64,000 nucleotides of DNA from Candidatus Aminicenantes bacterium (lineage in GTDB: Bacteria > Acidobacteriota > Aminicenantia > Aminicenantales > JAFGAV01), in assembly GCA_963702835.1 (NCBI GenBank), contig OY969762.1, positions 750,626 through 814,625 on the forward strand. The letters run 5' to 3'. This document shows positions 6,469 to 45,093 of the stretch, in pieces. Each line of letters starts with the position of its first letter. Position 1 is the stretch's first letter. The translations under genes and the position numbers were made by a program. The notes beneath the pieces are model-generated. The model made no database searches. It worked only from the letters and a program-made list of their open reading frames with translations, and was not told the origin of the DNA.

Positions 6469-6636
6469 TCTGTGCCTCTCTTCCATTTTGGCAAAGCACC
6501 ATTCTAATATCAAGCCATTCCTGCGGCCAGCGGGCCTCATTTTTCCCGGCGGCCATCTCCACTCGAACCACTCCGTGGGGCGAATCGTATATAATATTGA
6601 TTACATTAATAAGACCTATCAAAGTGGAGGAAGACC

Positions 6637-6915
6637 ATGGCTGACACGAGCAAGAGCAAGTTCACGGTCAACGGTTCCGAGCTTATCGAGGCCATCAAAA
6701 AGCTCATTCACGAGGGCAACATCCGGCGCATCCGACTGCTCCAGGATGACAAGCCGCTGATCGACATCCCCTTGACGGTGGGGGTCATCACCGTCCTGGC
6801 CGCGCCCGTGCTGGCGGCCATCGGCGTCATCGCCGCCCTGGTCAGCAAGTGCACCATCGAGGTGGAGAAGGTCGAGGACGTGAAGGCCGGGGAGACGAAG
6901 CCTAAAGATAAATAG
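6637..6915 (+). CDS. DUF4342 domain protein
   Basis: Good RBS (ggagga). The sequence FTVNGSELIEAIKKLIHEGNIRRI...IPLTVGVITVLAAPVLAAIGVIAALV is characteristic of DUF4342. Confidence 0.55.
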   Translation: MADTSKSKFTVNGSELIEAIKKLIHEGNIRRIRLLQDDKPLIDIPLTVGVITVLAAPVLAAIGVIAALVSKCTIEVEKVEDVKAGETKPKDK

Positions 6916-31112: not shown

Positions 31113-32384
31113 ATGAAAAAATTGTTCCAATTATGCTTCCTGGACGTCTTGCTTTTTGTCATTGGCCCACTAACAGCCGCTCAAGCCGATGACCCGACTT
31201 TGCGTCTGGCCATCGGGGATGCTCGATACAAGGACAAGACGCTCGACATCCGGCCGGGCCAGATCTTCTCGGCGGCCTCAGGGCGCGCCCTTTCTTTCAC
31301 GGCCATGGCTGAGGACTTGGGCCGGGCCCGGTTCGTTTATATCGGCGAAACCCACGACAGCCTGCCCAACCACGACCTCCAGCTCCGCATCGTGCAAGCT
31401 CTGCAGGAAAGGGACCCGGGCCTGGCCGTCGGCCTGGAGATGGTCCCGGCTACTTCTCAGGAAGTGCTCAACAAATGGAGCCTGGGGCTGCTGACCGAAG
31501 ACGAATTTCTTCGCCAGGCACGCTGGTATGTGGTCTGGAATTATCATTGGGGCTTCTACCGCAAGATTTTCTCCCTGGCCAAGGAGAAATCCATCCCTCT
31601 CCTGGCGCTCAACGTCGAACGCGATATCATCACCAAGGTCCGGATGAGGGGCTGGGACAGCCTGGCCGACGAGGAAAAGGCGCTCCTCCCCCGGCCCGAT
31701 CTTTCTAACCGGGACCACCGGGCCTTGATGAAGGCTGTTTTTTCGGCCGAGGAGTTGCCCCCCCAGATGAAAGGGGCCGGGTTCGAGGCCGTATTCGAAG
31801 GGCTGTACCGAGCCCAGTCCGCCTGGGATGAGGTCATGGCTTCGAACAGCCTCAAGGCTTCGGAAGAAGGGAAGAGGCGAGTGGTCGTTCTGGCCGGTTC
31901 CGGGCATCTTCTCTACAACCTGGGGATCAACCGCCGGGTCTTTGAGAAGAACCGGCTGCCGTTCCGAACGGTCGTCTGTGTCATTGTGCCGAAAGGCCGG
32001 GCCGGCCTCACCGTCTCCAGGTCGCTGGCCGATTACATCTGCGGACTGGCCGAGGAAGAGCGTCCTTTCTATCCCTCTCTCGGGCTGCGGCTCAAGACCG
32101 TGCCCGGGCTGGCCAACCTGGTCATTGAGTCCAAGCCTGTGGAGGGGGCGGCCGTGGGCCAAGATTTTGAAAAAGGCGATGTCATCCTGGCTGTGAACGC
32201 AAAAGCCTACTCCGACGTCAATGAACTGCGCCTGGACCTGGCCGTGTTCACCTGGGGCCAGGAGGTAAAGTTCAAGCTCCTGCGCGCCGGCGAAGTGCGC
32301 GAGGTGGTGCTGAGGATCATTCCGCCGCCGGCCAAGGCCGGGCCCGCCGGTCGGCTCCCGGGGGATCAAGCGGGCTTGAAATAG
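31113..32384 (+). CDS. ChaN/Tiki-superfamily (haem-binding uptake-like) lipoprotein fused to a C-terminal PDZ domain
   Basis: A signal peptide precedes a ChaN-like region (FVYIGETHDS...HDLQLRIV...GLEM...). The C-terminal PDZ-like segment reads GAAVGQDFEKGDVILAVNAKAY. Confidence 0.55.
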   Translation: MKKLFQLCFLDVLLFVIGPLTAAQADDPTLRLAIGDARYKDKTLDIRPGQIFSAASGRALSFTAMAEDLGRARFVYIGETHDSLPNHDLQLRIVQALQERDPGLAVGLEMVPATSQEVLNKWSLGLLTEDEFLRQARWYVVWNYHWGFYRKIFSLAKEKSIPLLALNVERDIITKVRMRGWDSLADEEKALLPRPDLSNRDHRALMKAVFSAEELPPQMKGAGFEAVFEGLYRAQSAWDEVMASNSLKASEEGKRRVVVLAGSGHLLYNLGINRRVFEKNRLPFRTVVCVIVPKGRAGLTVSRSLADYICGLAEEERPFYPSLGLRLKTVPGLANLVIESKPVEGAAVGQDFEKGDVILAVNAKAYSDVNELRLDLAVFTWGQEVKFKLLRAGEVREVVLRIIPPPAKAGPAGRLPGDQAGLK

Positions 32385-32421
32385 AAGAAGTCGGAAATAG
32401 AAGAAAAGGGAGGGTTATCTC

Positions 32422-34134
32422 ATGAAAAAGATTAGATTGATGACAATGATTTCAGCGGGGCTGGCCTCGGGCCTCCTCATCCTGAACACCGCGGCTTTCG
32501 CTTCCAGGGAGGCTCTCCTGACGCCGGCCGAGGACTGCCGATATACCGAATACTCCCAGCCTGAGGAGGTGGCCCGATTTTTGAGCTATCTGGATGCGAT
32601 CTCCAAGGAGACCGTGGTCCAGGTCGTCGGCCGGACCAGGGAGGTTGGGGAGTTCCCGGCTAAAGACCTCTATCTCTGCATCCTGACCGAGTCGGGTGTG
32701 GCCACGCCCGATAAACTGGACCGAACCAAGCCTACCCTGATGATCACCGCTTCCCAGCACGGCAACGAGCAGGCGGGTAAAGAGTCTGCTTTGGAGTTCG
32801 TTCGCGACCTGGCCCTGGGCGAGCTCAGGCCTTTGCTCAAACAGGCCAATATCCTGGTCATGCCCCAGTGTAACCCCTACGGCAATTGGTTCGACCGCCG
32901 CCAGAACGAGCAAGACCTGGACCTGAACCGTGACCACACCAAGCTGGAGTCGGAGGAAGTAGCGGCCATGCACCGTGTCTTCCGGGCCTGGATGCCCGAA
33001 ATCACCCTGGACATGCATGAAAAGGGCGACGATTATTACCGGGTGTCGCTGGGCTGCGTCTCGAACATCAACATCTCCGCCGCGCTCCGGAAATTCTCGC
33101 GGGAGACTATCCTCCCCGAGGTGGACAAGGCCCTGGACAGGAAGAACATCACTTTCTGCGAATATGTGGTGACCGATGATATTGAATTCAACGTCTCCAC
33201 CGGGGTCAACTACCCGGCCGCCATGCTGAACGGCCGCGAGACGAGGATGCGTTTCAGCACCGTGGAGCTGAACGACGGCCGCAGCGGCCCGGGCATCTAC
33301 GAGACGCTGTCCTTCATCATGGAGTGCGCCTCCCGCCATGATTTGTCCACCCTCCGGGAGAGGACGCGTTGGCAGTCGAGCGGGCTGAGGGCCTGGGCCG
33401 AGTCCGTGGTCCGGCATGGCCAGGAAATCCTGACCATGGTCAACCGGCTGCGGGCGGAGCTCTTGGCCAAAGCCCGGGTTTATAGTCCGGATGATGTGGT
33501 CCATCTGCGAATGGAATATGTTCGCGATCCAAAACAGCCCAAGCTGGTGCGCCAAAGCTTCCAATCGGCCTCCAGCCCCGTGCGGGGGATCCTGAGGGTG
33601 GATAAAAAGGCGGGGGATGCCGTTGCCGCCAATGATCTGGCGCCCTATCCCTTGCCTTCTCAGCTCAAGGTTGTGCAGGAGGTCGTGCTGAACTGGTTCC
33701 CCGGCGTCGAATCCCGGCTGGCCGTGACGCGGCCCGTGGGCTACATTATTCCGGGAGATAAGACCGCTGTGATCGAGACGCTGCTCCGGCATAGGATCGC
33801 CGTGGACCTCTTCGTCAAGGACGCCCCGCTATCCGTAGAAGCCTATGAGGTGAAATCCATCGAGTTGGCCGATTTTGATTGGCTGCCGCCCAAGACGATC
33901 GAGGTGGAGAAGAAAGTGATGCCCATCGTCGTCCGCAAAGGCGATTTTTTTGTGTCCTGCGGCCAGCCGGCGGCCAATTTGATTCCCTGCCTGCTGGAGC
34001 CTCAATCCCAGTTCGGGTTCATCTGTTATCAGAAACTCAAGCTCCTGCCCAAGGCCGAGGATATCTTTTCCATAACCCGCTATGTTGGGAGTCAACCGCT
34101 GCCCGTGATTCCTTACCGGGACTTCCTGAACTGA
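32422..34134 (+). CDS. M14 family zinc carboxypeptidase (secreted)
   Basis: Signal peptide present. The zinc-ligand region reads ITASQHGNEQAG...NPYG...DLNRD...HE. The protein is about 570 aa. Confidence 0.7.
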   Translation: MKKIRLMTMISAGLASGLLILNTAAFASREALLTPAEDCRYTEYSQPEEVARFLSYLDAISKETVVQVVGRTREVGEFPAKDLYLCILTESGVATPDKLDRTKPTLMITASQHGNEQAGKESALEFVRDLALGELRPLLKQANILVMPQCNPYGNWFDRRQNEQDLDLNRDHTKLESEEVAAMHRVFRAWMPEITLDMHEKGDDYYRVSLGCVSNINISAALRKFSRETILPEVDKALDRKNITFCEYVVTDDIEFNVSTGVNYPAAMLNGRETRMRFSTVELNDGRSGPGIYETLSFIMECASRHDLSTLRERTRWQSSGLRAWAESVVRHGQEILTMVNRLRAELLAKARVYSPDDVVHLRMEYVRDPKQPKLVRQSFQSASSPVRGILRVDKKAGDAVAANDLAPYPLPSQLKVVQEVVLNWFPGVESRLAVTRPVGYIIPGDKTAVIETLLRHRIAVDLFVKDAPLSVEAYEVKSIELADFDWLPPKTIEVEKKVMPIVVRKGDFFVSCGQPAANLIPCLLEPQSQFGFICYQKLKLLPKAEDIFSITRYVGSQPLPVIPYRDFLN

Positions 34135-34209
34135 CTCTCCCCGGAGGTTGGGGGGCTCCACGACCCCTCATTGGGATATTGGCATCATGTTCTGCCCAGA
34201 GGAGGCCGA

Positions 34210-36945
34210 ATGATAAAGCGTTTTGATCCCTTCCTATTTCTGGCTCTTTCTCTTTTGCTTTTTTTCATCCTCTCCGCGGCGGCGGGCCAGGATATGTTCA
34301 CTGAGAACTTGTTGAAAAACTTTACCTTCCGCAGCCTGGGGCCTTACCGCGCCGGCTCCTGGGTCACTTCCGTCGCCGTCCCCGAAAAACCGCTCAAGGA
34401 GCATCTCTACACCTTCTATATCGGCACGAGGAACGGCGGCGTATGGAAGACGGTCAATAACGGGACTACTTTCGAGCCGGTGTTTGACGGCCAGAGCCGG
34501 CTGTCCATCGGCGACGTGGCCGTGGCGCCTTCCAACAGTCAGGTCATTTGGGTAGGGACGGGTGAGTCCTATTGCACCCGGAGCTCGCACAGCGGAGACG
34601 GCGTTTATAAATCCGTGGACGGGGGGAAGACCTGGATTCCTATGGGCCTCCCGGATTCCCATCATATCGCCCGGATCATTGTCCATCCCCGGAACCCGGA
34701 AGTCGTCTATGTGGCGGCCATGGGCCACCTGTTCACGCCCAATGCCGAGCGCGGCGTATTCAAAACCATTGACGGCGGCCGGACCTGGAAGAAAGTCCTT
34801 TATATCAACGATAAAATCGGCGTCATCGATCTGGTCCAGGACCGCCGCCGGCCGGAAATCCTTTACGCGGCTGCTTACGACAAGGTGCGGCTGCCCTGGC
34901 ACTATGAGGCCGGCGGGCCGGAGAGCGCCGTCTATAAGACGGAGAACGCCGGGAAGTCATGGCGACGTCTCAGCGGGGGGCTTCCCACGGGCCGGGTCGG
35001 ACGCATCGGCCTCGATCTTTACCAGAAAAACCCGGATATCCTGTATGCCATCGTGGAAAACGCCAACCCCAGGCCGGCCACCCAGCAGGAGCAGGAACAG
35101 GATAAGCGTCGCGGGCTTGAGCCGCGTCCGCGTACGGTGGGGAATGAAGTCTATCGGACGGACGATGGCGGCCGGGCCTGGAGGAAAGTGAACCCCGGCA
35201 GCGAAGCTGCCCTGGATAAAGCGCCCTATTCCTTCAACCAGCTTCGCCTGGACCAGAACGACCCCGGCACGGTCTATATCACCGGACAGTCCCTGGCCAG
35301 CACCAACGATGCGGGCAAGACATGGAAAGGCCTGGCTTGGCCGTCGGACGGAGTTTTTCAGAAGGCTTTCGGCGACTGGCGCACTCTGTGGGTGGACCCT
35401 CAGAATTCAGACCGGCTCATCTTCGGCAGCGATGGCGGCATTTACATCTCCTATGACCGCGGCCTGACCTGCCACAACTGCGATAACCTTCCCCTGGGCG
35501 AGTTCTACGCCCTGGGCCTGGACATGGAGGACCCCTACAACATTTACGGCGGCCTGCAGGACCACGATTCCTGGAAAGCGCCGTCGCTCGGCTGGGCGGG
35601 TGCCATCAGCCTCTCCGAGTGGGTCACCGTGGGAAGCGGGGACGGCATGTACAACCAGGTCGATCCCATAGACGGCCGCTGGGTTTACAACAACAGGGAA
35701 TTCGGGGCGATGTGGCGGCTCGACCAGAAAACCGGCCTGCAGACTGAAATCCGGCCGCGGCGGACGCCAGGGCAGGAACCGCTGCGCTTCAACTGGACGC
35801 CGCCCATCCTTCTCTCGCCCCACGACCCGGCTGTGGTTTATGTCGGCGCCCAGGTCCTCTTCCGGTCATCCGACAGAGGCGACCACTGGACGGAGCTCAG
35901 CCCGGACCTGACCACTAATGATAAATCCAAGCAGGCCGGAGCCGGCAACATCACCTACTGCACCATCACCACTCTCGCCGAGTCGGCGCTTCAGCCCGGC
36001 GTCATTTGGGTGGGGACGGACGACGGCAAGGTCCAATTGACCACCGACGGGGGAGCTACCTGGAAAGACCGGACCCCCAACATCTCCGCCGCGGGCGGAC
36101 CGGAGAATTTTTGGGTGAGCCGGGTCTTTGCCTCTCCCCATGAGGCGGGCACGGCTTTCGCGGCCAAGACCGGCCTGCGCTTCGACGATTTCCGAGCTCT
36201 TCTCTTTAAAACGACGGACTATGGAGAGACCTGGACGTCTCTATCCGGCGGCCTTCCCGAAAAATGTGTCAACGTTGTTGTCCAGGACCGCCGGAATCCC
36301 GGCCTGCTGTTCGTAGGGACGGAGCAGGGGGTGTACGTGTCACTCGACGGAGGGAAGAAGTGGGTTCCCTTTAAGAACAATATGCCCTGGGTCAAGGTGA
36401 CCGACCTGGCCATCCATCCCCGCCAGAACGACCTGGTGGTGGCCACCTTCGGCCGGGGCCTGTATATCACGGACATCGCGCCCCTCCAGGAAATGAATGA
36501 GGCCATGCTCCAGCAGGATGTTTTTATTTTTGAAATCAAACCGGCCGTGCAGAGGATCTACGGCGGCCTGGGCAACTATCAACTCCTGGGCGACGACCAT
36601 CTCATCACCCCGAACGAGCCCAACGCCGTGGTGGTCAATTATTATTTAAAGGAAAAGGCCAAAAGCAAGGTCAAGATAACGGTATCTGATGCCGCGGGCC
36701 AGACCCTGGCCGAGCTCGACGGCCGGGGCGAAGCCGGGGTGAATACCGTGCTTTGGGATATGAGGCCGCCTAAGCCCGCTGGTCAAGCCCCCCGCTTCGA
36801 GGATGATTCGAGAAGCCCCCTGGTGGACCCCGGCCCGTACTCGGTGAAGCTCGATATTGACGGCAGGACTTTAACCAAAAAAGCCGTGATCGTCAAACGG
36901 ATGGGCTGGTCTCTCGGCCCCTTCCCGACGGTTATAAAAGAATAG
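34210..36945 (+). CDS. BNR/Asp-box repeat beta-propeller protein (sortilin/VPS10-like / xyloglucanase-like), secreted
   Basis: The RBS ggagg precedes ATG at 34210. A signal peptide is present, and Asp-box repeats recur (SxDxGxTW: SVDGGKTW, TIDGGRTW, TENAGKSW, TDDGGRAW, TNDAGKTW, TTDGGATW, SLDGGKKW). Confidence 0.75.
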   Translation: MIKRFDPFLFLALSLLLFFILSAAAGQDMFTENLLKNFTFRSLGPYRAGSWVTSVAVPEKPLKEHLYTFYIGTRNGGVWKTVNNGTTFEPVFDGQSRLSIGDVAVAPSNSQVIWVGTGESYCTRSSHSGDGVYKSVDGGKTWIPMGLPDSHHIARIIVHPRNPEVVYVAAMGHLFTPNAERGVFKTIDGGRTWKKVLYINDKIGVIDLVQDRRRPEILYAAAYDKVRLPWHYEAGGPESAVYKTENAGKSWRRLSGGLPTGRVGRIGLDLYQKNPDILYAIVENANPRPATQQEQEQDKRRGLEPRPRTVGNEVYRTDDGGRAWRKVNPGSEAALDKAPYSFNQLRLDQNDPGTVYITGQSLASTNDAGKTWKGLAWPSDGVFQKAFGDWRTLWVDPQNSDRLIFGSDGGIYISYDRGLTCHNCDNLPLGEFYALGLDMEDPYNIYGGLQDHDSWKAPSLGWAGAISLSEWVTVGSGDGMYNQVDPIDGRWVYNNREFGAMWRLDQKTGLQTEIRPRRTPGQEPLRFNWTPPILLSPHDPAVVYVGAQVLFRSSDRGDHWTELSPDLTTNDKSKQAGAGNITYCTITTLAESALQPGVIWVGTDDGKVQLTTDGGATWKDRTPNISAAGGPENFWVSRVFASPHEAGTAFAAKTGLRFDDFRALLFKTTDYGETWTSLSGGLPEKCVNVVVQDRRNPGLLFVGTEQGVYVSLDGGKKWVPFKNNMPWVKVTDLAIHPRQNDLVVATFGRGLYITDIAPLQEMNEAMLQQDVFIFEIKPAVQRIYGGLGNYQLLGDDHLITPNEPNAVVVNYYLKEKAKSKVKITVSDAAGQTLAELDGRGEAGVNTVLWDMRPPKPAGQAPRFEDDSRSPLVDPGPYSVKLDIDGRTLTKKAVIVKRMGWSLGPFPTVIKE

Positions 36946-36972
36946 CCATCTCGTCGAGGAACCGGCTTAGCC

Positions 36973-39900
36973 TCACTTCCTTTTGTCCGGATAGGCCGGG
37001 TGCTTGGGAACCTCGACCGGCTTTTTCTCTATTTTCTCCTGGAGATACTTGACGGCCGCCTCGAGCTGGGCGTCTTTTCCCCGGAAGGCGGCGCGGGGCA
37101 GGTTGTCCACCACGATATCAGGTTCGACGCCGTGGCCCTCGATGAGCCATTCGCCCTCCGGGCTGTAGACGCCCGTTTCTGCTGCTGAGGCGATTCCCCG
37201 GTCGACCAGGATGTTGCTCTGGCTCAACCAGATCTCGCCCCCCCAGGTCCGCATGCCGATGACCTGGCCCAGGCCGAGCCTGCGGAAGCCTTCGCTGAAA
37301 GCCTCGCCGTCCGAGGCCGTATATTCGTCGCACAGGACGACCAGGTGCCCGCGGAAAGCGTATTGCATGTTCCAGGTCGGCCTGCCCACCCGGCCCTGCC
37401 AGTAGAACCAGGCCCGCCGCAGAAGTTTTTCCAGAATCCAGGAATCGATGTTGCCGCCGCGGTTATGCCGGACATCGATGATCAGCCCTTGGCGGTCGAA
37501 GACCGGATAAAAGTTCTTGGCCCACTCGGTGTAGTTGTCGCCGCCCATAGCCCGCAGATGGAGGTAGCCGATTTTTCCTTTCCCGGCCTTCTCCACTTCA
37601 AGGCGGCGGGTGTATTCCCATTCGGCATAGCGGAGGTCGGATTCGGCCCCGGTGGTCAGGGGATAGACGATGGCCTTGAAGGCCTCACCGCCCGCGGCCG
37701 GCTTGACCTCGAGCAGAACCTGCAGGCCGGCCGTGTTCCGCAGGAGGAGCGACGGGTCGGCCACGCCGACCGTCGGCGCGCCGTTTATGGCCATGATCAG
37801 GTCGCCCTCCCGGATGTTCAGCATGGGCTGGCCCAGCGGGGAACAGCGCTCGGGATACTCGGGGTCCGACCGGTAGATGTGCTCGACCCGATAGCCGCCC
37901 CCGGCCTCATCGCGGGCCAGCCTGGCCCCCAGCGAACCCAGGGCAACATTATCGGCGCCTTGACGGACATCGCCGCCCCGGACGAAGGTGTGGAGGGCCG
38001 ACAGCTCGCCGACGAGATGGGCCAGGAGGTCATTGAGCTCGGCCCGGTCGCTGACCCTGTCCACAAAGGGCCGGTGCCGCTGGAGAAGGCCTTGGTAATC
38101 GACGTTGTGGAGGTTCCGGTCGTAGAAATAGTCCCTCTCCATGCGCCAGGCGTCAATGAACATCTGACGCCACTCCTGCCTGGGGTCGATAGAGAAGGTC
38201 CAGCGGGACATATCGACTTTCTTCTCGCCCAGGGCCGGGGGAGCCGAGGCTGCGGCGTCGATGACGTAGAGGTCGCTGTCTTTCTGGACGAGGATCTTCT
38301 TTCCGTCGGCCGAAAGCTCGAAGTTCCGAATGTCCTCCAGGACCGTCTTGGCCTGGACGTTTCGGTTCTTGATCTCGATGGCCTGAAGCTTGTTGCGGCC
38401 CGCGGCGGCGCTCTCCCGGTCGATGAAGAAAAGCATTTTTTCGCAGACGGCGAGTTGAGAATAAGCGCCGGCCGGGAGGGGCACCTCAAAGATGCGATCC
38501 TGGATGCCGGCCAGCTCCATCACCACCTTGGCCGCGGCTGCCTTAGGCCCTTTTGACTCGGCGGGTTTTTCGGCCTTGGCCGGCTCTCCGGCCGGGGCCT
38601 TTGCCTCCTTGGCTTCTTTCTGCGCCTTGTCTTCCTTAGTGAGCTCATTGGAAGGAGCGAAGGGGAAGGTCTCCTTGGCGGTCAAGGCCAGGGCATAGAT
38701 TTTAGTCGTCTTGTCAAAGTAGGGTTCCGGCTGGCGGGGTCCCCAGGGGCTGCCCACGGCGCTCCGCAAATATCGGTCGGACAGAAAATAGAGCCACTTC
38801 CCGTCCGGGCTCCAGGCCGGGTTATAGGAGTCGACGCGGTTGTCGGTCAGCTCGCTGATTTGGCCCGTCGTGGCGTTGAGGAGCATGACCTGCTGGAAAG
38901 AGTTGTCGGCCGTTTGGCCGAAAGCCAGCCACTGGCTGTCGGCGGACCAGGCCAGGTCGTCGAACATCCCGTTCGGTGATTCGGCCACCCGGCTCAGGGT
39001 TTTCTTATCGAGGCTGTAAACCCAGAGCTGGTTGTCTTTGTCGGCGAAGGCGATGGAGCGGCCGTCGGGCGAGGGAATCCCGTCGAAGCGGATGACTTTG
39101 GCGCCCGAGGTGAGCTGCTCCTCCTGCCCCAGCCCGTCGGCCGGGGTGCGGAGGAATTCCCACTCGCCGGTCTGGTCGGAGAGGATCATCAGGATTTTCC
39201 CGTCCCCCAGGAAGCGGGCGGTCCGGCTGCGGACGCCGTCCTGGCGGCTGACCCGGATCCACCGTCCGTCTTCCACGGGAGCGACAAAGACGTTGCCGCG
39301 GGAAATGAGGACCAGCCGGTCACCCGAGGGCGAGAGATGGACGGAGGTCAAGTAGTCCAGCGGCTTGCTGACCCATTTCTCCCGCATCTGGTCGAAGTCC
39401 GAGGGGAGGGTGATGTCGATGGGACGATCCTGGCCGCTGCCGATGTCGTAAAGGCGGAGGTCGGCCACCAGCTGATAGGCAATTTTCCCGTTGTGGAGCG
39501 AGGGCCAGCTCACGTCGAATCCTTTATGGAAGGTGTGCTGCTTGAGAGCCCCGCCCTGGGGATCTATGGACCACAGGTTCATGGTGCCGTCGCGGTCGCT
39601 GACAAAATAGACCCGGCCCTGCCAGAACATGGGGTTTTTGCTCGTCCCGGGATAGTCGGCGGTCAGGGGGGAAGCCTCCGGGTCTCCGGCTGTGTACCTC
39701 CACAGGTTTTGGGCAGTCCCGCCTTTATATCGTTTGGTGTAGCTTCCTTGGAAGGGGAGACGGGTAAAGTAGAGCGCCCGGCCGGCCGGGTCAAAGGACC
39801 CGTCCGCTGCCTGGCTGAGAGGGAGAATGTTTTCGGTATTTGTCTTAGGGTCGAGGACCACCAGCTGGGTGTTGGGGAGCGTCGAGTACTTCTGGGTGGC

Positions 39901-40275
39901 GTAAATGATTTTCCCGTCCGGCGTCCAGCCCACGACGGCCGAGGTCTGGCCGGAGAACGTGCGGCGGACCGGGAGTCCGCCGGCCAGGGGCATGGTGTAC
40001 ACCTCGGTAGGTCCCTCATACTGAGCGGAGAAAGCGACAGTTGTCCCGTCGGGAGAGATGGCCGGGTTGGTCTCGAGCCCGGGGTGGGTCGTCAGGCGGA
40101 CGGCCGTCCCTCCCTTGATATCGACCGACCAGAGGTCTCCTTCCGAGGTGAAAACAACCGTATTCCCGTGAATAGCGGGGAAGCGGTAATATCCGTTCCG
40201 GCCGGCAGGAAAAGAGGGGAGGGTCATCACAGCCAGGGTCAGGACGACGGCCAAGAGGGCGAAGGTTTTTTTCAT
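36973..40275 (-). CDS. Tricorn protease homolog (beta-propellers, PDZ and S41 peptidase)
   Basis: The ORF is 1100 aa with a signal peptide. Tricorn-type N-terminal propeller repeats (PAISPDG...VAFS) and a C-terminal S41-like domain are present. Confidence 0.85.
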   Translation of the reverse strand: MKKTFALLAVVLTLAVMTLPSFPAGRNGYYRFPAIHGNTVVFTSEGDLWSVDIKGGTAVRLTTHPGLETNPAISPDGTTVAFSAQYEGPTEVYTMPLAGGLPVRRTFSGQTSAVVGWTPDGKIIYATQKYSTLPNTQLVVLDPKTNTENILPLSQAADGSFDPAGRALYFTRLPFQGSYTKRYKGGTAQNLWRYTAGDPEASPLTADYPGTSKNPMFWQGRVYFVSDRDGTMNLWSIDPQGGALKQHTFHKGFDVSWPSLHNGKIAYQLVADLRLYDIGSGQDRPIDITLPSDFDQMREKWVSKPLDYLTSVHLSPSGDRLVLISRGNVFVAPVEDGRWIRVSRQDGVRSRTARFLGDGKILMILSDQTGEWEFLRTPADGLGQEEQLTSGAKVIRFDGIPSPDGRSIAFADKDNQLWVYSLDKKTLSRVAESPNGMFDDLAWSADSQWLAFGQTADNSFQQVMLLNATTGQISELTDNRVDSYNPAWSPDGKWLYFLSDRYLRSAVGSPWGPRQPEPYFDKTTKIYALALTAKETFPFAPSNELTKEDKAQKEAKEAKAPAGEPAKAEKPAESKGPKAAAAKVVMELAGIQDRIFEVPLPAGAYSQLAVCEKMLFFIDRESAAAGRNKLQAIEIKNRNVQAKTVLEDIRNFELSADGKKILVQKDSDLYVIDAAASAPPALGEKKVDMSRWTFSIDPRQEWRQMFIDAWRMERDYFYDRNLHNVDYQGLLQRHRPFVDRVSDRAELNDLLAHLVGELSALHTFVRGGDVRQGADNVALGSLGARLARDEAGGGYRVEHIYRSDPEYPERCSPLGQPMLNIREGDLIMAINGAPTVGVADPSLLLRNTAGLQVLLEVKPAAGGEAFKAIVYPLTTGAESDLRYAEWEYTRRLEVEKAGKGKIGYLHLRAMGGDNYTEWAKNFYPVFDRQGLIIDVRHNRGGNIDSWILEKLLRRAWFYWQGRVGRPTWNMQYAFRGHLVVLCDEYTASDGEAFSEGFRRLGLGQVIGMRTWGGEIWLSQSNILVDRGIASAAETGVYSPEGEWLIEGHGVEPDIVVDNLPRAAFRGKDAQLEAAVKYLQEKIEKKPVEVPKHPAYPDKRK

Positions 40276-40501
40276 AATGAGAACTCCTTTCTCGAACTCC
40301 AGACGATGAGCCCCTATTGTAAGAACCAGAAGAGGTATTTTTCAAGAGGCCACCGCCCGCTCAGATCGCTTATCAGGAAGAGATCTATGCGGCGGGTTCG
40401 TTGGAACTGCGCCGCAGCGCCGTTTGATCCTTGGAGAGCCAAGGCCGATTTGCGCTGACCGGGTGTTTTCGGCTATTTTTATAGAGGACGCGAATAAGAC
40501 G

Positions 40502-41179
40502 ATGATCGTTCTGCTCATCATTGTCCTCGTGGCTTTCATCGCCGCGGGCATCTATCTCAGCTTGTGGCTGGCCGCCAAGCGCCGCAATGAGCTGTCCGAC
40601 TGGGGCGCCGCGCACGGCCTGACCTTCTCGCCCGCGAAAGACGGCTCGCTGGAATCCCGGTTCCCCGCGTTCAACTGCCTCCGGTCCGGTGATCACCGCT
40701 ATGCTGAAAACATCTTGACCGGAAAATGGTCAGACCGCGATTTCCTGAGTTTTGATTATCACTATGAGACGCACACGCAAAGCAGTAAGGGCGGAACGCA
40801 GACGCAGCACCACCACTTTTCCGCCGTCGTTCTCTCCAGTCCTGTCCTGCTCAAACCCCTGTTCATCCGGCCGGAGGGATTGTTCGACAAGCTGGCCGGG
40901 TTCTTCGGGTTCGATGACATCAATTTCGAGTCGGCCGAGTTTAGCCGCAAGTTCTACGTCAAGTCGCCCGATAAAAAGTGGGCCTACGACGTGATCCACC
41001 AGCGCACGATGGAATTCATACTCGGAATGCCCAAGTTCAGCCTGCAGTTCGACGGACACTCGGCCATCGCTTGGCGCAGTTCGACGTTCAAAACCCAGGA
41101 CTTCGAGCAGGCTGCGGAACTGATCACGGGGATCCTCGAGCGCTTGCCGGAATACCTCGTGCAGCAGCAAATGTCCTAA
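40502..41179 (+). CDS. Membrane-anchored hypothetical protein (DUF3137-like; LemA-associated)
   Basis: A single N-terminal TM (MIVLLIIVLVAFIAAGIYLSLWLAA) is followed by a soluble domain. The gene lies immediately upstream of lemA. Confidence 0.45.
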   Translation: MIVLLIIVLVAFIAAGIYLSLWLAAKRRNELSDWGAAHGLTFSPAKDGSLESRFPAFNCLRSGDHRYAENILTGKWSDRDFLSFDYHYETHTQSSKGGTQTQHHHFSAVVLSSPVLLKPLFIRPEGLFDKLAGFFGFDDINFESAEFSRKFYVKSPDKKWAYDVIHQRTMEFILGMPKFSLQFDGHSAIAWRSSTFKTQDFEQAAELITGILERLPEYLVQQQMS

Positions 41180-41194
41180 CCGTAGGAGTCAGTC

Positions 41195-41755
41195 ATGGAA
41201 CCCATCGTGATCATCATCATTGCCGTTGTCGTGCTCCTTATCGCCTGGATTATCGGCATGTACAACTCTCTCGTTAAAATTCGCCAGCAGTGCCGCGAGT
41301 CCTGGTCGGTGATCGACACCGAGCTTAAGCGCCGCTACGACCTGATCCCGAACCTGGTTGAAACCGTCAAGGGTTACGTCAAGCACGAGAGCGGCGTGCT
41401 CCAGGCCGTGACCGAGGCTCGCAGCAAAGCCGTGGCCTCGACCGGTTCGCCCGCCAGCCAGGCGGCCGACGAGAACGTCCTGGTCGGCGCGATGAGGCAG
41501 ATGTATGGCGTCGTGGAGCGCTACCCCGACCTCAAGGCCAACCAGAACTTCCTGAAACTGCAGGAGGAGCTGGCGAACACGGAAGACCGCATCCAGGCCG
41601 CCCGCCGCTTCTACAACGCCAATGTCCGCGACATGAACACCAAGGTCGAAGTCTTTCCCTCCAATATCCTCGCCGGAATGTTCGGGTTCAATCGGGAGGA
41701 ATTCTTCGAGATCGAGGACACCGGCATCCGAACCCCGCCGGCGGTCAAGGTCTAG
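41195..41755 (+). CDS. lemA: LemA family protein
   Basis: An N-terminal TM precedes the conserved LemA core (YNSLV...RYDLIPNLVETVKGY..HE..VL..VTEAR...YPDLKAN.NF..LQ.EL..TE.RI..AR..YN). Confidence 0.8.
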   Translation: MEPIVIIIIAVVVLLIAWIIGMYNSLVKIRQQCRESWSVIDTELKRRYDLIPNLVETVKGYVKHESGVLQAVTEARSKAVASTGSPASQAADENVLVGAMRQMYGVVERYPDLKANQNFLKLQEELANTEDRIQAARRFYNANVRDMNTKVEVFPSNILAGMFGFNREEFFEIEDTGIRTPPAVKV

Positions 41756-42101
41756 TTTTTCCGACCCTTGGGGCGTTACCTTCGCAGCGATCGAAGATGC
41801 TATGGCCCAAAAGCGATTCGGGTCGGACCGAGCTCGTGCATTTATTATCAACTAATTAGAAGGATAATCGACGGCAATATTAGCCAATTTAAGGGCAATT
41901 CAGGGCCAAAAAAGTTTGAATTTGTTTTTATTCAAGGTATCGGTGACGTAGATAGTGAGCATTTTTTGCCCTAAAAACATGGCATTTTGGGGGTAAAAAG
42001 GCAAAGTATTGAAGCTAACTTTTTGATTCCAAAATAGAACCCTCGGTCTGACCCCACGCACCCTCGCTTTGGTCGATATATGGTCAAGATGCGTAACTCA
42101 T

Positions 42102-42596
42102 TTATGTTTTGCTGATTCCTTCTGGCCCCCATGTAGAAATTATAGTGCCGATGAATTTGGTCCGGCTATCGCTTTGCATCCTGGGGGAATCTAAATCTAA
42201 AACAGGGCTATCAACCCTCAACTCTACTGCCCCATACTGTTGAGGCAGAATATTCCTTGCGGAGATTGTCATCCACGAGCCTCCATCGCCCGGGGCGACC
42301 AATTCAAAAGGAGCATCTGTCTCCATTATGCTAAATATGCCATTTTTGCTAGTGATATCAGCAGTAAAATATTGGGCGGGTGCATTGCCGCGATTGCAGA
42401 TCACTACCGCGAGATGCTTGCCGCAGCCTTGATAGCTGACCACGATAAACGGTTTTTTAGCGAACGGGAAGCGTCCTTTTTGAGCGTTCAGTGCCATCAA
42501 AATTATCCCAACAAGCACGCCAGCGACAATAGTAATAATCATGTTCAAGCCAGTGATTCCGCTTTGCCTTTCTTGGACAAGATATAGGCCTGGCAC
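42102..42596 (-). CDS. Hypothetical membrane-anchored protein (N-terminal TM plus about 130-aa beta-rich domain) in a low-GC island
   Basis: The TM segment is MIITIVAGVLVGIILMAL, and the true start is possibly at 42542. It is transcribed divergently from the SIR2-like gene. Confidence 0.45.
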   Translation of the reverse strand: MPGLYLVQERQSGITGLNMIITIVAGVLVGIILMALNAQKGRFPFAKKPFIVVSYQGCGKHLAVVICNRGNAPAQYFTADITSKNGIFSIMETDAPFELVAPGDGGSWMTISARNILPQQYGAVELRVDSPVLDLDSPRMQSDSRTKFIGTIISTWGPEGISKT

Positions 42597-42746
42597 AGCT
42601 GCAATGTCAAGGGGAAGAAGAGTGATCAGGATCAGGTTTTCTCACCCCCCGTCTCCCAGTAGCCTACCGGCCCATCTCCCTTGACATACCCTCGCCTTTG
42701 GGAAAAAATCTATAAATTAAGATAGGGCTTTGTTTCGAGGACCAAA

Positions 42747-43658
42747 ATGATCCTATCAAGAACTGTTTTTATCCTCGGGGCTGGAGCAAGTTGCGATTTT
42801 AAGTTTCCGTCGGGGCAACGTCTGGTTGATATCATCGTCGACCATCTCGACCACCGAAAGGATAATGAATGGCGCGATATTCTGGGGACACTTGGACATA
42901 GGCATCATTCTGATATAGATAATTTCGCAACTTATTTAAAGAAAAGTCACCTTTACTCGATTGATGAATTCCTGTTGAGACATTCAGAGTTCATGGAGCT
43001 AGCTAAGAAGTGCATCGCTCTTGCTCTAATCCCGTTCGAGAAGGATGAGAATCTGTCTGGAGATCACTGGTGCAGGTATCTATTTAATAACCTGGTTGAT
43101 AGCGTAACAGATTGGCGCAAATTGCGGGAAAACGAGCTCTCCATAATCACCTTCAATTATGATAGATCACTAGATCATTATTTGTTTGAAGGCTTAAAGC
43201 ATACCTTTTCTCTTTCCCCACAAGACACACTTTGGGCTTTTGAGACTATCCCTATAGTTCATGTTTATGGAAAGTTGGGGGGACTCCCCGGATGCGCAGG
43301 AGGCGCAAAAGAGGAGAGGGAATATACTCCTGCTTTGGACTGGGGAGAAGTCAGCCGAGCAGCGAGCCAAATCATAACAATCCCCGAATTGCTAAAAGAG
43401 AAGCCTGACACAATAGATCACGCAATTAGCTTACTCAATAGGGATAATGAAAGCATCTATCTGCTTGGCTTTGGCTACAATAACAAGAACTTGGAGATGC
43501 TTCATTTTGATCGGGCTAGAGCCAATAGGAAAAATGGCACCTGCGTGGGATTGGGCCTGGCCGAACGGGAGTATGTTTCCAGGGAATGGAAAATCCTTTT
43601 CCCCAGCTTTGGAAAATATATAATGGATTTCATGAAGGAAGAGGTATCTTGGCGGTGA
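42747..43658 (+). CDS. SIR2-like (SIR2_2-type) NAD+-binding/NADase domain protein, standalone
   Basis: Four family motifs appear in order: VFILGAGASCDFKFPSG (GAGxS), SIITFNYD (TNYD-like), IVHVYGKL (H-x-HG) and IYLLGFGYNNKN (GYS-like). The local GC is about 40-45% versus about 62% in the flanks. Confidence 0.6.
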   Translation: MILSRTVFILGAGASCDFKFPSGQRLVDIIVDHLDHRKDNEWRDILGTLGHRHHSDIDNFATYLKKSHLYSIDEFLLRHSEFMELAKKCIALALIPFEKDENLSGDHWCRYLFNNLVDSVTDWRKLRENELSIITFNYDRSLDHYLFEGLKHTFSLSPQDTLWAFETIPIVHVYGKLGGLPGCAGGAKEEREYTPALDWGEVSRAASQIITIPELLKEKPDTIDHAISLLNRDNESIYLLGFGYNNKNLEMLHFDRARANRKNGTCVGLGLAEREYVSREWKILFPSFGKYIMDFMKEEVSWR

Positions 43659-44133
43659 GCACCAATCAACTATCTTTACACCAGCGTTTCCGCGTAGCCG
43701 ACGATATAAAGATGTGCGGTGTTTGTTTTGGTGATGTTATAGTCGATCGTTTCGATGAAGGTCGTGGCTTTCCTCACGGATTTCTCCGTGGTGGACAGGA
43801 TCATCGACCACCTTAAGCTGACCTTTGTCACGGACAGGCCCCCCGCCCCCTCAGGCCATCTCGCAGGAACTCTTGATGGCCGCTGATGTTTCGGCCGAAT
43901 ATTTCTTATAAAGCTCTCTTATGCCGAGGGGTAGGTCCGGGTGATTTCCGCCTCTCGGGCACCGTGGCCGGTTTCCGGGTCGCCCCCTTCGCTCTCCAGC
44001 CTACTGATTACTTCTGGGTCGAGATGTAAGCTTCCTAAGGGTGGCGATAGGGGATAATCGATGCCCAACCGTGCCCTGCTTGAAGATTTCACTTCAGAGG
44101 TGCTACATTGAGCGGGGGCAGGTCAGTTGACGC

Positions 44134-45093
44134 TCAATTCTTTTTTTCAGTCAGCTCCAGGTAGATCACTTCCACTAAGCTGGGCCAGCGCCGTCCGCCG
44201 GCCGCCGCCTGGTCCACGATGTTGAAGGCCTTTTTTATGTCATCCAGGTTTTTCTTCTCGGCGATAAGGGCCTTCACTTTGTCCAATCTTTCCTGGATAT
44301 AGGCCAATCCCTTCTCCAGCTCGGCTTTGCCCTCCGGCTCGTTGTGGCCGCAAACATAGATATCGGCGTCCAGGGCCAGCAGCGCTTTCAGGGTTTTAAC
44401 CGCGCCCAGGACGCTTCCATTCTTTTGACGATGGATGAGCGGGTCGCGGCCGACGAACAGCAGGTCGCCGATGAAGGCAACTTTATCCTCGGGAATATAG
44501 ACGACTGCGTCGCCGTCCGTGTGGGCCGGGCCGAAATAGAAAAGCTCGAGGCGCTTCCCCCCCGAGAAAATAGTCATGGTTTCGGTGAAGGTTATGTTGG
44601 GCAGGTAGGCTTGCTGGCGAGGATCCAGAAAGGCGGCGGCCATATGCTTCCGGGTGTTATCCTGAGAGACGATCACCAGCCCGGCCGGGAATCCGGTCAG
44701 GCCGTTGACATGGTCACCGTCGCTGTGAGTAAGGAGGACGGTTGTCAGGGGAACCGGAGCGAGCTTTTTCGCTTCGTCCAGCATTTTTTTGGCCGATTCA
44801 TCGGTCATCTTGGCGTCAATGATAAACGCCTCTTTGTCCGTCCAGAACAGGCCACAGTTGGCGCCGCTGCCGCCCACAATTTCATAAATGTTTCCCCGTA
44901 TATGGGTCAGGGTGAGGGGAGGGGGTTCCGGTTGGGCCTGAGCTGGCCGGCCCTGCGGCTGCTGGGCTAGGGCCGCTCCAAACACAAGACAGATGGCAAG
45001 GATAATTCCGTAAAGAGGCCGATGGGATTTCATGGACATGTCACTCTCCTTCAAAAAATACACCGCCCGCGAGCTTTTCCTCAAAAAGATCAA
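44134..45093 (-). CDS. MBL-fold metallo-hydrolase (secreted)
   Basis: A signal peptide (MKSHRPLYGIILAICLVFGAALA) precedes the MBL motif region (LLTHSDGDHVNG...H...D...CGH). Confidence 0.75.
   Translation of the reverse strand: MIFLRKSSRAVYFLKESDMSMKSHRPLYGIILAICLVFGAALAQQPQGRPAQAQPEPPPLTLTHIRGNIYEIVGGSGANCGLFWTDKEAFIIDAKMTDESAKKMLDEAKKLAPVPLTTVLLTHSDGDHVNGLTGFPAGLVIVSQDNTRKHMAAAFLDPRQQAYLPNITFTETMTIFSGGKRLELFYFGPAHTDGDAVVYIPEDKVAFIGDLLFVGRDPLIHRQKNGSVLGAVKTLKALLALDADIYVCGHNEPEGKAELEKGLAYIQERLDKVKALIAEKKNLDDIKKAFNIVDQAAAGGRRWPSLVEVIYLELTEKKN

Follow-up and report, generated by a model that had tools for sequence, protein, structure and literature searches.

The islet found between the lemA gene and an MBL-fold hydrolase gene in the window (the whole stretch of DNA analysed, 64,000 nucleotides in length) carries two unrelated cargo genes, one of which encodes a stand-alone SIR2_2-type (SIRim-type) protein of 303 aa. 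The reading preferred here is that the strain-specific islet at 42062-44125 was gained by horizontal transfer, at a locus differing in every relative examined, and that the SIR2-like protein is a mobile, single-gene conflict or defence enzyme which would process NAD at a non-canonical active site; confidence and doubt in this joint reading are about evenly balanced. The protein belongs to a large, uncharacterised family of single-domain proteins of ~300 aa, which are mostly encoded by monocistronic genes and lack a conserved partner. The site itself is an IS91-scarred variable locus and not a defence island.

Composition and borders of the islet

Base composition sets the region apart from its surroundings, with a drop to 42-48% GC from about 60-64%. 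In 400-bp windows, the GC content at 41.6-43.8 kb is 0.42-0.485 versus 0.56-0.69 on either side, and GC3 amounts to 0.46 in the SIR2-like gene and 0.49 in the gene of a small membrane-anchored (TM) protein, as against 0.82-0.86 in the core genes tricorn, lemA, sucC and sucD of the flanks. These values bear out the AT-rich island on a GC-rich background described in the initial annotation. The flanking genes are convergent, as was also stated there: lemA (41195-41755, + strand; Pfam LemA, 2.8e-56) faces the MBL-fold hydrolase gene (44134-45039, - strand; Lactamase_B, 1e-24). The island had been given as 41760-44133; the strain-variable segment, which holds the genes of the TM and SIR2-like proteins and an IS91 remnant, is narrower (42062..44125, 47.5% GC). 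The AT-rich non-coding spacer 3' of lemA (41756..42061, 43% GC) also occurs in relatives without the cargo. Sequence L012, which is 97.5% identical and lacks both genes, can be aligned up to 42061 and diverges beyond it, so that the left border is placed at 42061/42062; L013 is alignable to window position 41985. Since these ~300 bases are common to L012, the alignment puts the spacer outside the variable insert. On the right-hand side, the break relative to L014 falls at 44126.

The islet is absent from L012, L011, L014 and 32 metagenomic relatives. Both cargo genes are present in another sample (L009), which is 99.95% identical over 41701-43803 with one base differing over 2.1 kb; being the same sequence at the strain level, L009 is not an independent occurrence of the gene pair. 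Absence from the relatives compared, along with GC and GC3, confirms that the insert is strain-specific and foreign in composition. A simple insertion between two adjacent core genes, which had also been proposed, did not hold: lemA was not found directly beside the MBL gene (an 'empty site') among L011-L014 or the 32 metagenomic relatives, and synteny stops at the lemA stop codon in 32 of the 32 relatives examined. Because synteny always ends at this codon, the event is not describable as a clean insertion. No Rfam match (E<=1) was obtained over 41.0-45.5 kb and no tRNA was detected in a scan of the whole window, so that an att-type tRNA target is lacking. A search for direct and inverted repeats flanking the islet gave short matches at the chance level, with no recognisable target-site duplication or terminal repeats, and BLAST revealed no further copy of the islet in the rest of the window.

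In the right-hand part of the islet, at 43755..43985 on the + strand, lies what is left of an IS91-family (Y2, rolling-circle) transposase gene, identified by its similarity to L014. It comprises the last ~43 codons of the transposase (43755-43886) and adjacent 3' element DNA (43897-43985). The peptide encoded by it, MKVVAFLTDFSVVDRIIDHLKLTFVTDRPPAP, corresponds to the C-terminal end of the ORF at 6563-6901 of L014 (…VRYYGLYAN…MKVVGFITEYAVVDRIMEHLKLTFAAAKPPPS), and blastn patches between the remnant and L014 show 81-85% identity. The homologous and adjoining ORFs of L014 have Zn_Tnp_IS91 and Y2_Tnp matches and the RYYGLYAN motif. An intact Y2 transposase, with its Zn-binding N-terminus and HUH/Y2 core, is not found at the right-hand remnant, where only the terminal codons are left. 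The ~470 bp of non-coding DNA noted in the initial annotation contains these codons, and its 'decayed ORF fragments' are the tail of this transposase.

The SIR2-like protein and its predicted active site

The SIR2-like gene occupies 42747..43658 on the + strand. The sequence GAGGA lies 8 nt ahead of its ATG, and the divergent intergenic region (42549..42746) includes a promoter-like TTGACA-17-AAAAAT at 42681-42709; in a scan for promoters and terminators, the number of sites was no higher than the shuffled expectation. The assignment of the 303-aa product to the SIR2_2 type is supported by the predicted fold, a SIR2-type Rossmann domain whose strand 1 is followed by a helical insert, the match to the PADLOC SIR2 model PDLC04087 (2e-6), which recognises 44 of 44 relatives as well, and a profile match to KomC. 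Moreover, PF13289 (SIR2_2) matches 34 of the 44 relatives (best 2.3e-7), and no other Pfam family matches those. The PF13289 match predicted for the window protein itself is absent, as the protein has no Pfam match at E<=1 and falls below every Pfam and NCBIfam threshold. A PDB sequence search with the single protein yielded chance matches only, and a BFVD fold search nothing at E<=0.001. The 303-aa sequence contains no CxxC pair, the Cys4 module by which classical sirtuins bind Zn is absent, and no sensor domain is present.

The SIR2_2 motifs listed for the ORF were all located: GAGAS (11-15), FNYDRS (136-141), H172-V-Y174-G175 and LGFGY (240-244), followed by N248. Among 218 family members, G11-A-G13, N137-Y-D139, H172, G175 and G241 show little or no variation, as do S15 and R140 at the ends of G11-A-G-A-S15 and N137-Y-D139-R140, and Ser71, Asp73, Glu98 and Asn248 are invariant. 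Altogether 17 positions are conserved at >=97%, although the median identity between pairs of members is 39%, a pattern that speaks for selection. The G-A-G-V-S and N107-Y-D-R of KomC align with G11-A-G-A-S15 and N137-Y-D139-R140, so that the catalytic Asn of the SIR2 family has its counterpart in N137. The His immediately before the conserved Gly is catalytic in other SIR2 proteins and is reported to be essential there (ThsA H152, DSR2 H171). In two independent alignments (HMMER and hhalign), the catalytic H146 of KomC falls on Y174; H172, two residues ahead, which had been proposed as the catalytic His of the HxYG motif, is therefore not the canonical one. Position 174 is His in 128 and Tyr in 90 of the 218 members (Tyr, 41%). 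KomC D194 falls on N246 in a weak alignment segment (2.6 bits), and that position is acidic in 90 of the 218 members (41%). In KomC, the H146A substitution kills both NADase activity and defence, D194 is also essential, and an Asp after the G-Y-S motif (D194 in KomC) is reported to be specific to immune NADases (PMC13454610). Judged from these alignments, the active site of the SIR2-like protein is non-canonical.

As had been suggested, the locus does not correspond to any described SIR2 system. The SIR2 subunit of SIR2-HerA (Nezha; PDB 8w9l, 8sub, 8j4u) shares 12-15% sequence identity with the window protein. SIR2-HerA needs an adjacent HerA ATPase, with which it forms a 12:6 complex, whereas HerA is neither found in the window nor recurrent among 150 neighbours of the family. 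In Thoeris, the SIR2 domain of ThsA is fused to SLOG (or Macro/TM) and accompanied by an adjacent TIR-domain ThsB, whereas the window protein has the SIR2 domain only and the neighbour families that recur beside SIR2-like genes do not include TIR. DSR1/DSR2 carry a large C-terminal domain (>900 aa protein), in contrast to 303 aa of SIR2 domain alone, and the window protein has neither the APAZ and pAgo of SPARSA (SIR2-APAZ + pAgo) nor the STAND NTPase of Avs5 (SIR2-STAND NTPase). The vertebrate FAM118A/B proteins (SIRal/SIRanc) are likewise stand-alone and of SIR2_2 type, but they are eukaryotic, share 15% identity and keep the canonical His206 and Asp255; beyond membership of the superfamily, nothing indicates a direct relationship. 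KomC (Kongming; PDB 8zsf, 9v0g) functions as one product of the KomA/KomB/KomC operon, and dITP, when bound to KomB, activates it (PMC13454610). The window has neither a KomA (deaminase) nor a KomB (HAM1-like) neighbour, and these are not among the families represented at least twice in 150 neighbours.

Spread of the family, its neighbours and the membrane protein

The family comprises 2,874 clusters, almost all with lengths of 295-320 aa (full range 271-390 aa, mode ~300). A search of one genome per species matched 416 species, and no copy exceeded 39% identity to the window protein; the closest SIR2-like relatives show 39-44% identity. Members turn up, in scattered fashion, in many phyla of bacteria and in at least one archaeon, and some are carried inside phage genomes. 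The GC content of the family gene lies under that of its flanks at 78 of 81 loci, by 9.9 points on average (Wilcoxon p = 9e-15). In viral contigs, terminase, tape measure, tail sheath, DnaB and primase genes are found within 4 genes of a family member; no tblastn match was obtained among INPHARED phages. Open-access papers and preprints, searched for SIR2 defence proteins that stand alone or are encoded by a single gene, yielded no description of this family and no functional work on any of its members.

No neighbour is conserved across the family. When the ORFs within 4 kb of 80 genome loci were clustered, the largest cluster covered 5 of the 80, in a census of the 150 nearest ORFs no family recurred more than 3-4 times, and 100 SIR2-family loci have no conserved neighbour in common. 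The neighbours of the closest relatives are unrelated and show no mutual similarity. A tight co-oriented neighbour, of mixed sizes, occurs upstream at 20% and downstream at 13% of loci, and the median intergenic gaps around family genes are 91-149 bp. Sampled neighbours include a RES toxin (L003), AbiJ, SLFN/AlbA_2, Abi_C together with an integrase and a resolvase, a restriction endonuclease, HipA and DGQHR. The defence flavour of the immediate neighbours is nevertheless modest, and many of them have housekeeping roles (UvrC, GidA, RNR and Pol III alpha, for instance). Bacterial SIR2 proteins of the SIRim clade have been reported as 12-fold enriched near defence systems (10.1101/2024.09.18.613514).

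The second cargo gene encodes the small membrane-anchored protein on the - strand. Both ORFs of the initial annotation are real. The longest TM-protein ORF (42102-42596, 164 aa) reaches 42596, and the protein is probably 148 aa long (42102..42548), starting from the TTG at 42548 that is called in another assembly. AF2 predicts an N-terminal helix at residues 2-24 (pLDDT 81-87) and a pLDDT of 40 outside it from a 3-sequence alignment. The TM family is rare, with 3 homologues in 5.8 billion proteins and 22 cluster representatives in 1.84 billion; its common layout is a TM helix followed by a ~115-aa domain with an N-x-G-x-A-P-A motif. The protein has no match in Pfam, NCBIfam, PADLOC or PDB (profile search), and Pfam searches with 20 members of its family produced marginal Ig-like hints only (E 0.01-0.05, single members). 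No relatives were found in viral contigs. Separately, ORFs of 163-178 aa beside the closest SIR2-like relatives were considered as analogues of the TM protein and were rejected, as they resemble neither it nor each other.

Preferred reading and its alternatives

SIR2-type NADases are among the commonest prokaryotic immune effectors, and relatives take part in human innate immunity. To our knowledge, the bacterial SIR2-type NADases characterised so far are all coupled either to a sensor domain or to a partner. A bare domain with no conserved partner would, if active, have to sense infection itself or owe its regulation entirely to assembly or expression. Under the preferred reading, the protein would bind NAD+ via the GAGAS and N137-Y-D139-R motifs and cleave it, or transfer its ADP-ribose, acting alone as a conflict enzyme of the abortive-infection or defence type. 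By analogy with ThsA, Avs5, FAM118B and KomC, for which filament-gated NADase activity has been reported (PMC12700824, PMC13454610), this activity would probably be gated by self-assembly and not by a partner.

The module proposed in the initial annotation would unite the two cargo genes, the TM protein serving as a membrane-anchored sensor or effector beside the NADase. The genes are indeed adjacent, divergent around a 150-bp intergenic region, alike in their low GC3 and found together in L009. However, L009 is not a second case, and the 22 cluster representatives of the TM family stand against thousands in the SIR2 family. Members of the TM family in L008, L010 and L115 have no SIR2 gene beside them, the closest SIR2-like relatives have other neighbours, and the ORFs clustered from the 80 genome loci, drawn from 4 kb around the SIR2-like gene, included no TM-family relative. 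This lack of co-occurrence leads to rejection of the pairing: a two-gene module is very improbable and largely refuted, and the TM protein is an unrelated passenger that shares the islet with the SIR2-like gene but has no demonstrable connection with it. The corrective for the window is that this module should not be taken as real.

The linked-gene idea may also take the form of a toxin-antitoxin pair, with the SIR2-like protein as toxin and a fast-evolving, non-homologous small gene next to it providing the antitoxin or regulator. NAD-depleting toxins such as RES exist, and the RES toxin of L003 adjoins a family member; an upstream ORF of 114-407 aa is co-oriented and tightly linked at about 20% of loci, and HTH_3 and HTH_31 each occur in 3 of 150 neighbours. 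This pairing is nonetheless very improbable given that 80% of loci lack such an ORF, the median gaps are 91-149 bp, no neighbour family recurs, and the only neighbours in the window are the divergent TM protein and a transposase stump. It is highly improbable that the window copy is an inactive, decaying pseudo-enzyme left as a passenger by an IS91-mediated event. The Tyr at the canonical His position, the Asn at the KomC-D194 position, the missing Pfam match and the adjoining decayed transposase would fit such a state, but the ORF is of full length for the family, all 17 family-invariant residues are kept, Tyr174 is a normal family state and the gene is nearly unchanged in the second sample. 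A SIR2-fold enzyme with a non-immune or offensive role, and not a NAD-depleting suicide effector, is possible but rather doubtful; examples would be a NAD-dependent ADP-ribosyltransferase or deacylase, or else a nucleotide-binding protein with which mobile elements or phages manipulate the host.

The preferred reading of a self-acting conflict enzyme may be extended, tentatively and with doubt prevailing, to the whole family, which would then form a class, not recognised before, of minimal SIR2 proteins that serve bacteria and phages in immunity or conflict and are sufficient by themselves. Sensor, switch and effector would be combined in ~300 residues, the canonical His would be interchangeable with Tyr, and the chemistry would rely on the invariant His at -2 along with Ser71, Asp73 and Glu98 of the helical insert. 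If this were true, either the NADase site of the family would be rewired or its NAD-dependent reaction would be a new one. The alternation of His and Tyr, combined with the conserved His at -2, offers a mutational hypothesis for rewired SIR2 NADase chemistry. Family members are encoded on the Agrobacterium C58 plasmid pAt (ATU_RS24105) and on Rhizobium plasmids, which brings the family within experimental reach.

A stand-alone and mobile SIR2_2-type family

The SIR2-like gene (42747-43658, + strand) encodes a 303-aa protein which, when searched alone, gave no Pfam or NCBIfam match and only a weak match to PADLOC SIR2 (2e-6). At the family level the sequence-based assignment is firm. The PADLOC SIR2 model PDLC04087 was matched by all 44 family members and PF13289 (SIR2_2) by 34 of them, with no other Pfam family detected in this set, and the family profile retrieved KomC from the PDB (E 3.7e-5; hhalign probability 94.5%). 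The AlphaFold2 model, built on a 44-sequence alignment, reached a pLDDT of 93.7 and a pTM of 0.92. The protein has a bona fide SIR2_2-type fold.

The family is large, single-domain, partner-less, mobile and also phage-borne. A search of 5.8 billion clustered proteins returned 2,874 relatives at E ≤ 1e-3, nearly all 295-320 aa long, the nearest non-identical one sharing 44% identity. When one genome per species was scanned, the signature motif was found in 416 species, including Zixibacteria, Omnitrophota, Planctomycetota, Bacteroidota, Chloroflexota, Acidobacteriota, Proteobacteria, CPR groups and a haloarchaeon, and even the best match shared no more than 39% identity with the window protein. 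After clustering of all ORFs within 4 kb at 80 loci, the largest neighbour cluster covered five loci. No Pfam family accounted for more than three of the 150 nearest neighbours (DNA methylases, AAA_21, GIY-YIG, HTH), and no PADLOC model for more than four. A co-oriented neighbour within 40 bp was present upstream in 20% and downstream in 13% of cases, and these genes were heterogeneous in size. Contexts at individual loci included a RES toxin, AbiJ, SLFN/AlbA_2 and Abi_C with an integrase, and plain housekeeping genes were also found among the neighbours. RES is another NAD+-degrading toxin fold; at one locus (L003, 7155-7931) the RES-domain gene lies directly upstream of the SIR2-like gene, co-oriented and separated by a 70-bp gap.

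In 78 of 81 loci the SIR2-like gene was poorer in GC than the flanking sequence (mean −9.9 points; Wilcoxon 9e-15), and this family-wide low GC is a signature of horizontal mobility. Relatives were found on 20 IMG/VR viral contigs, with genes for the large terminase subunit, tape-measure, tail-sheath, DnaB, primase and DNA methyltransferase within four genes; a tblastn search of the cultured-phage records in INPHARED yielded no family member. Relatives sharing 25-28% identity were also located on 13 plasmids. On pAt of Agrobacterium fabrum C58 the gene (ATU_RS24105) is annotated as "hypothetical protein" and lies two genes from a restriction endonuclease, and on Rhizobium plasmids a "SIR2 family protein" occurs near HipA, IS66 and a DGQHR protein. 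The pAt relative and that on plasmid p2 of Rhizobium ruizarguesonis (J3P73_RS28595) are full-length but distant (~28% identity, 371-391 aa) and reside in plasmid accessory regions, where Fic is also found nearby. Both hosts are culturable, which makes them convenient for a functional test.

Active-site constellation

Conservation was assessed in 218 family sequences with a median pairwise identity of 39%. At a cut-off of ≥97%, the conserved residues were G11, A12, G13, S15, P21, G23, L26, S71, D73, E98, N137, Y138, D139, R140, H172, G175, G241 and N248. The NAD-loop GAGAS aligns with GAGVS of KomC, and the Asn motif FNYDRS with TNYDR. Canonically, the catalytic His directly precedes the conserved Gly; in KomC it is H146, and the H146A substitution nearly abolished both NADase activity and defence (PMC13454610). 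In the HMMER and hhalign alignments alike, KomC H146 falls on Tyr174 (43266-43268) and not on His172. The ordered SIR2_2 motifs described in the initial annotation are therefore correct in outline, whereas the His it had taken as catalytic, H172, is not the canonical one. Of the 218 sequences, 128 have His and 90 have Tyr at position 174, which holds no other residue, and on a crude tree it has switched between the two at least about 30 times, each by a single C/T transition. His172 is retained in 216 of the 218 sequences and stands two residues upstream of position 174, so it would lie on the same face of the strand. KomC D194, an essential residue, has been reported to be found specifically in immune NADases (PMC13454610); its counterpart, in a statistically weak segment of the alignment, is Asn in the window protein, and only 41% of the family have an acidic residue there. 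The family has a rewired, conserved but non-canonical catalytic constellation, which lowers confidence in a standard NADase.

Borders and origin of the islet

In the window, which is part of a contig of 3.18 Mb, the sliding GC profile revealed a trough of 0.42-0.485 at about 41.6-43.8 kb, compared with 0.56-0.69 elsewhere in the region. GC3 amounted to 0.46 in the SIR2-like ORF and 0.49 in the small divergent ORF beside it, versus 0.82-0.86 in the surrounding tricorn protease, lemA, sucD and sucC genes. Pfam confirmed the described flanks, LemA (41195-41755, + strand; 2.8e-56) and an MBL-fold hydrolase (− strand; Lactamase_B 1e-24), whose start is probably 45039 because the recorded protein has 301 aa. 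Therefore, the low-GC island noted initially is real and far beyond chance.

The islet is foreign, strain-specific and carries an IS91 scar. A locus with 97.5% DNA identity (L012) is colinear over 31196-42061, beyond which it carries a different gene that is GC-rich and encodes a secreted protein rich in Ala. In a 92% identical one (L011) the match ends at the lemA stop codon, followed by flavodoxin and peptidase genes. On the other side, a 90% identical contig (L014) retains the MBL gene along with sucD and stays colinear as far down as 44126; the genes past this point differ and include two remnants of IS91-family transposases. In another sample, a contig of 2.1 kb matches 41701-43803 at 99.95% identity. 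The DUF3137-like 251-aa gene and lemA (40424-41755) are kept together in all 32 of the more distant metagenomic relatives; in each of them similarity stops precisely with the lemA stop codon, and within 6 kb none carries the MBL, TM or SIR2-like gene. These comparisons place the strain-variable segment at 42062-44125, and, judged by synteny, the locus is a general breakpoint rather than a simple insertion site between neighbouring core genes. Searches for a tRNA, an Rfam family and flanking repeats at the segment were all negative.

On this comparative evidence, the AT-rich stretch of 300 bp at 41756-42061 is older, shared and outside the variable segment. This non-coding spacer downstream of lemA (43% GC) had no Rfam or tRNA match, and it is conserved without the SIR2/TM cargo in L012 (97.5% identity, ~50-bp indel) and in a further locus, L013 (93%).

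The decayed ORF fragments reported at the right end are indeed present and can now be identified as the tail of an IS91-family (Y2, rolling-circle) transposase at 43755-43985, directly 3' of the SIR2-like gene. The translation of 43755-43886, MKVVAFLTDFSVVDRIIDHLKLTFVTDRPPAP…, matches the C-terminus of an L014 ORF (…VRYYGLYAN…MKVVGFITEYAVVDRIMEHLKLTFAAAKPPPS), and a sister ORF in L014 matches Pfam Zn_Tnp_IS91 and Y2_Tnp. From this match it can be inferred that the vehicle or scar was most likely a rolling-circle element of the IS91 type. The two L014 remnants (3813-4293 and 6563-6901) sit at this same locus close to the MBL gene, pointing to recurrent IS91 activity there.

Possible function and the neighbouring TM gene

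The SIR2-like protein most resembles the effector domains of SIR2-HerA, Kongming, Thoeris and DSR, but belongs to none of these systems because it lacks every partner and fused domain that defines them; the canonical His of the NADase clade is missing as well. No paper describing the family was found among open-access papers and preprints, and the gene is best filed as an uncharacterised stand-alone SIR2_2 family. The best reading, in which we place about even confidence, is a mobile single-gene SIR2-type NAD-processing conflict/defence enzyme with a non-canonical site. The protein would bind NAD+ and then cleave it or transfer ADP-ribose, in host-virus or inter-element conflict. It may be regulated through self-assembly, given the filaments of ThsA, Avs5, KomC and FAM118B (PMC12700824, PMC13454610) and the 12-fold defence enrichment reported for its SIR2 clade (10.1101/2024.09.18.613514). 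A non-immune or offensive SIR2-fold enzyme is about half as probable. A TA-like toxin is quite improbable: a RES gene adjoins one family member, but no recurrent neighbour family was found. An inactive relic is the least probable; the transposase beside the gene is decayed, and the strong conservation argues for a working enzyme. The family merits a bench test for its size, autonomy, phage carriage and His/Tyr switch with an invariant His at −2.

The initial annotation had proposed a novel two-gene architecture of SIR2 with the TM protein (42102-42548, − strand, 148 aa; longest form to 42596, 164 aa). Both genes share the islet and its low GC3, and this module is nonetheless very improbable, since the relatives of neither gene show co-occurrence. 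The TM protein had three homologues in the 5.8-billion set and 22 relatives when 1.84 billion representatives were scanned in full with HMMER, all with one N-terminal helix and a ~115-residue domain bearing an N-x-G-x-A-P-A…F-T-A-D-I motif; it had no significant family, structure or viral match, and its AF2 model was unusable. No SIR2-like gene lies beside the TM relatives at the three loci with context (L008, L010, L115). The closest SIR2-like relatives, P0003 and P0006, as well as P0072, P0086 and P0118 have differing neighbours, similar neither to the TM protein nor to each other. The two genes are, by their genomic contexts, co-passengers, a functional pair is without support, and the locus is no new multi-gene system. 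At L010 (1-669) the TM relative is translationally coupled, through a 4-bp overlap, to an upstream gene unrelated to SIR2, which may be the real partner of the TM family.
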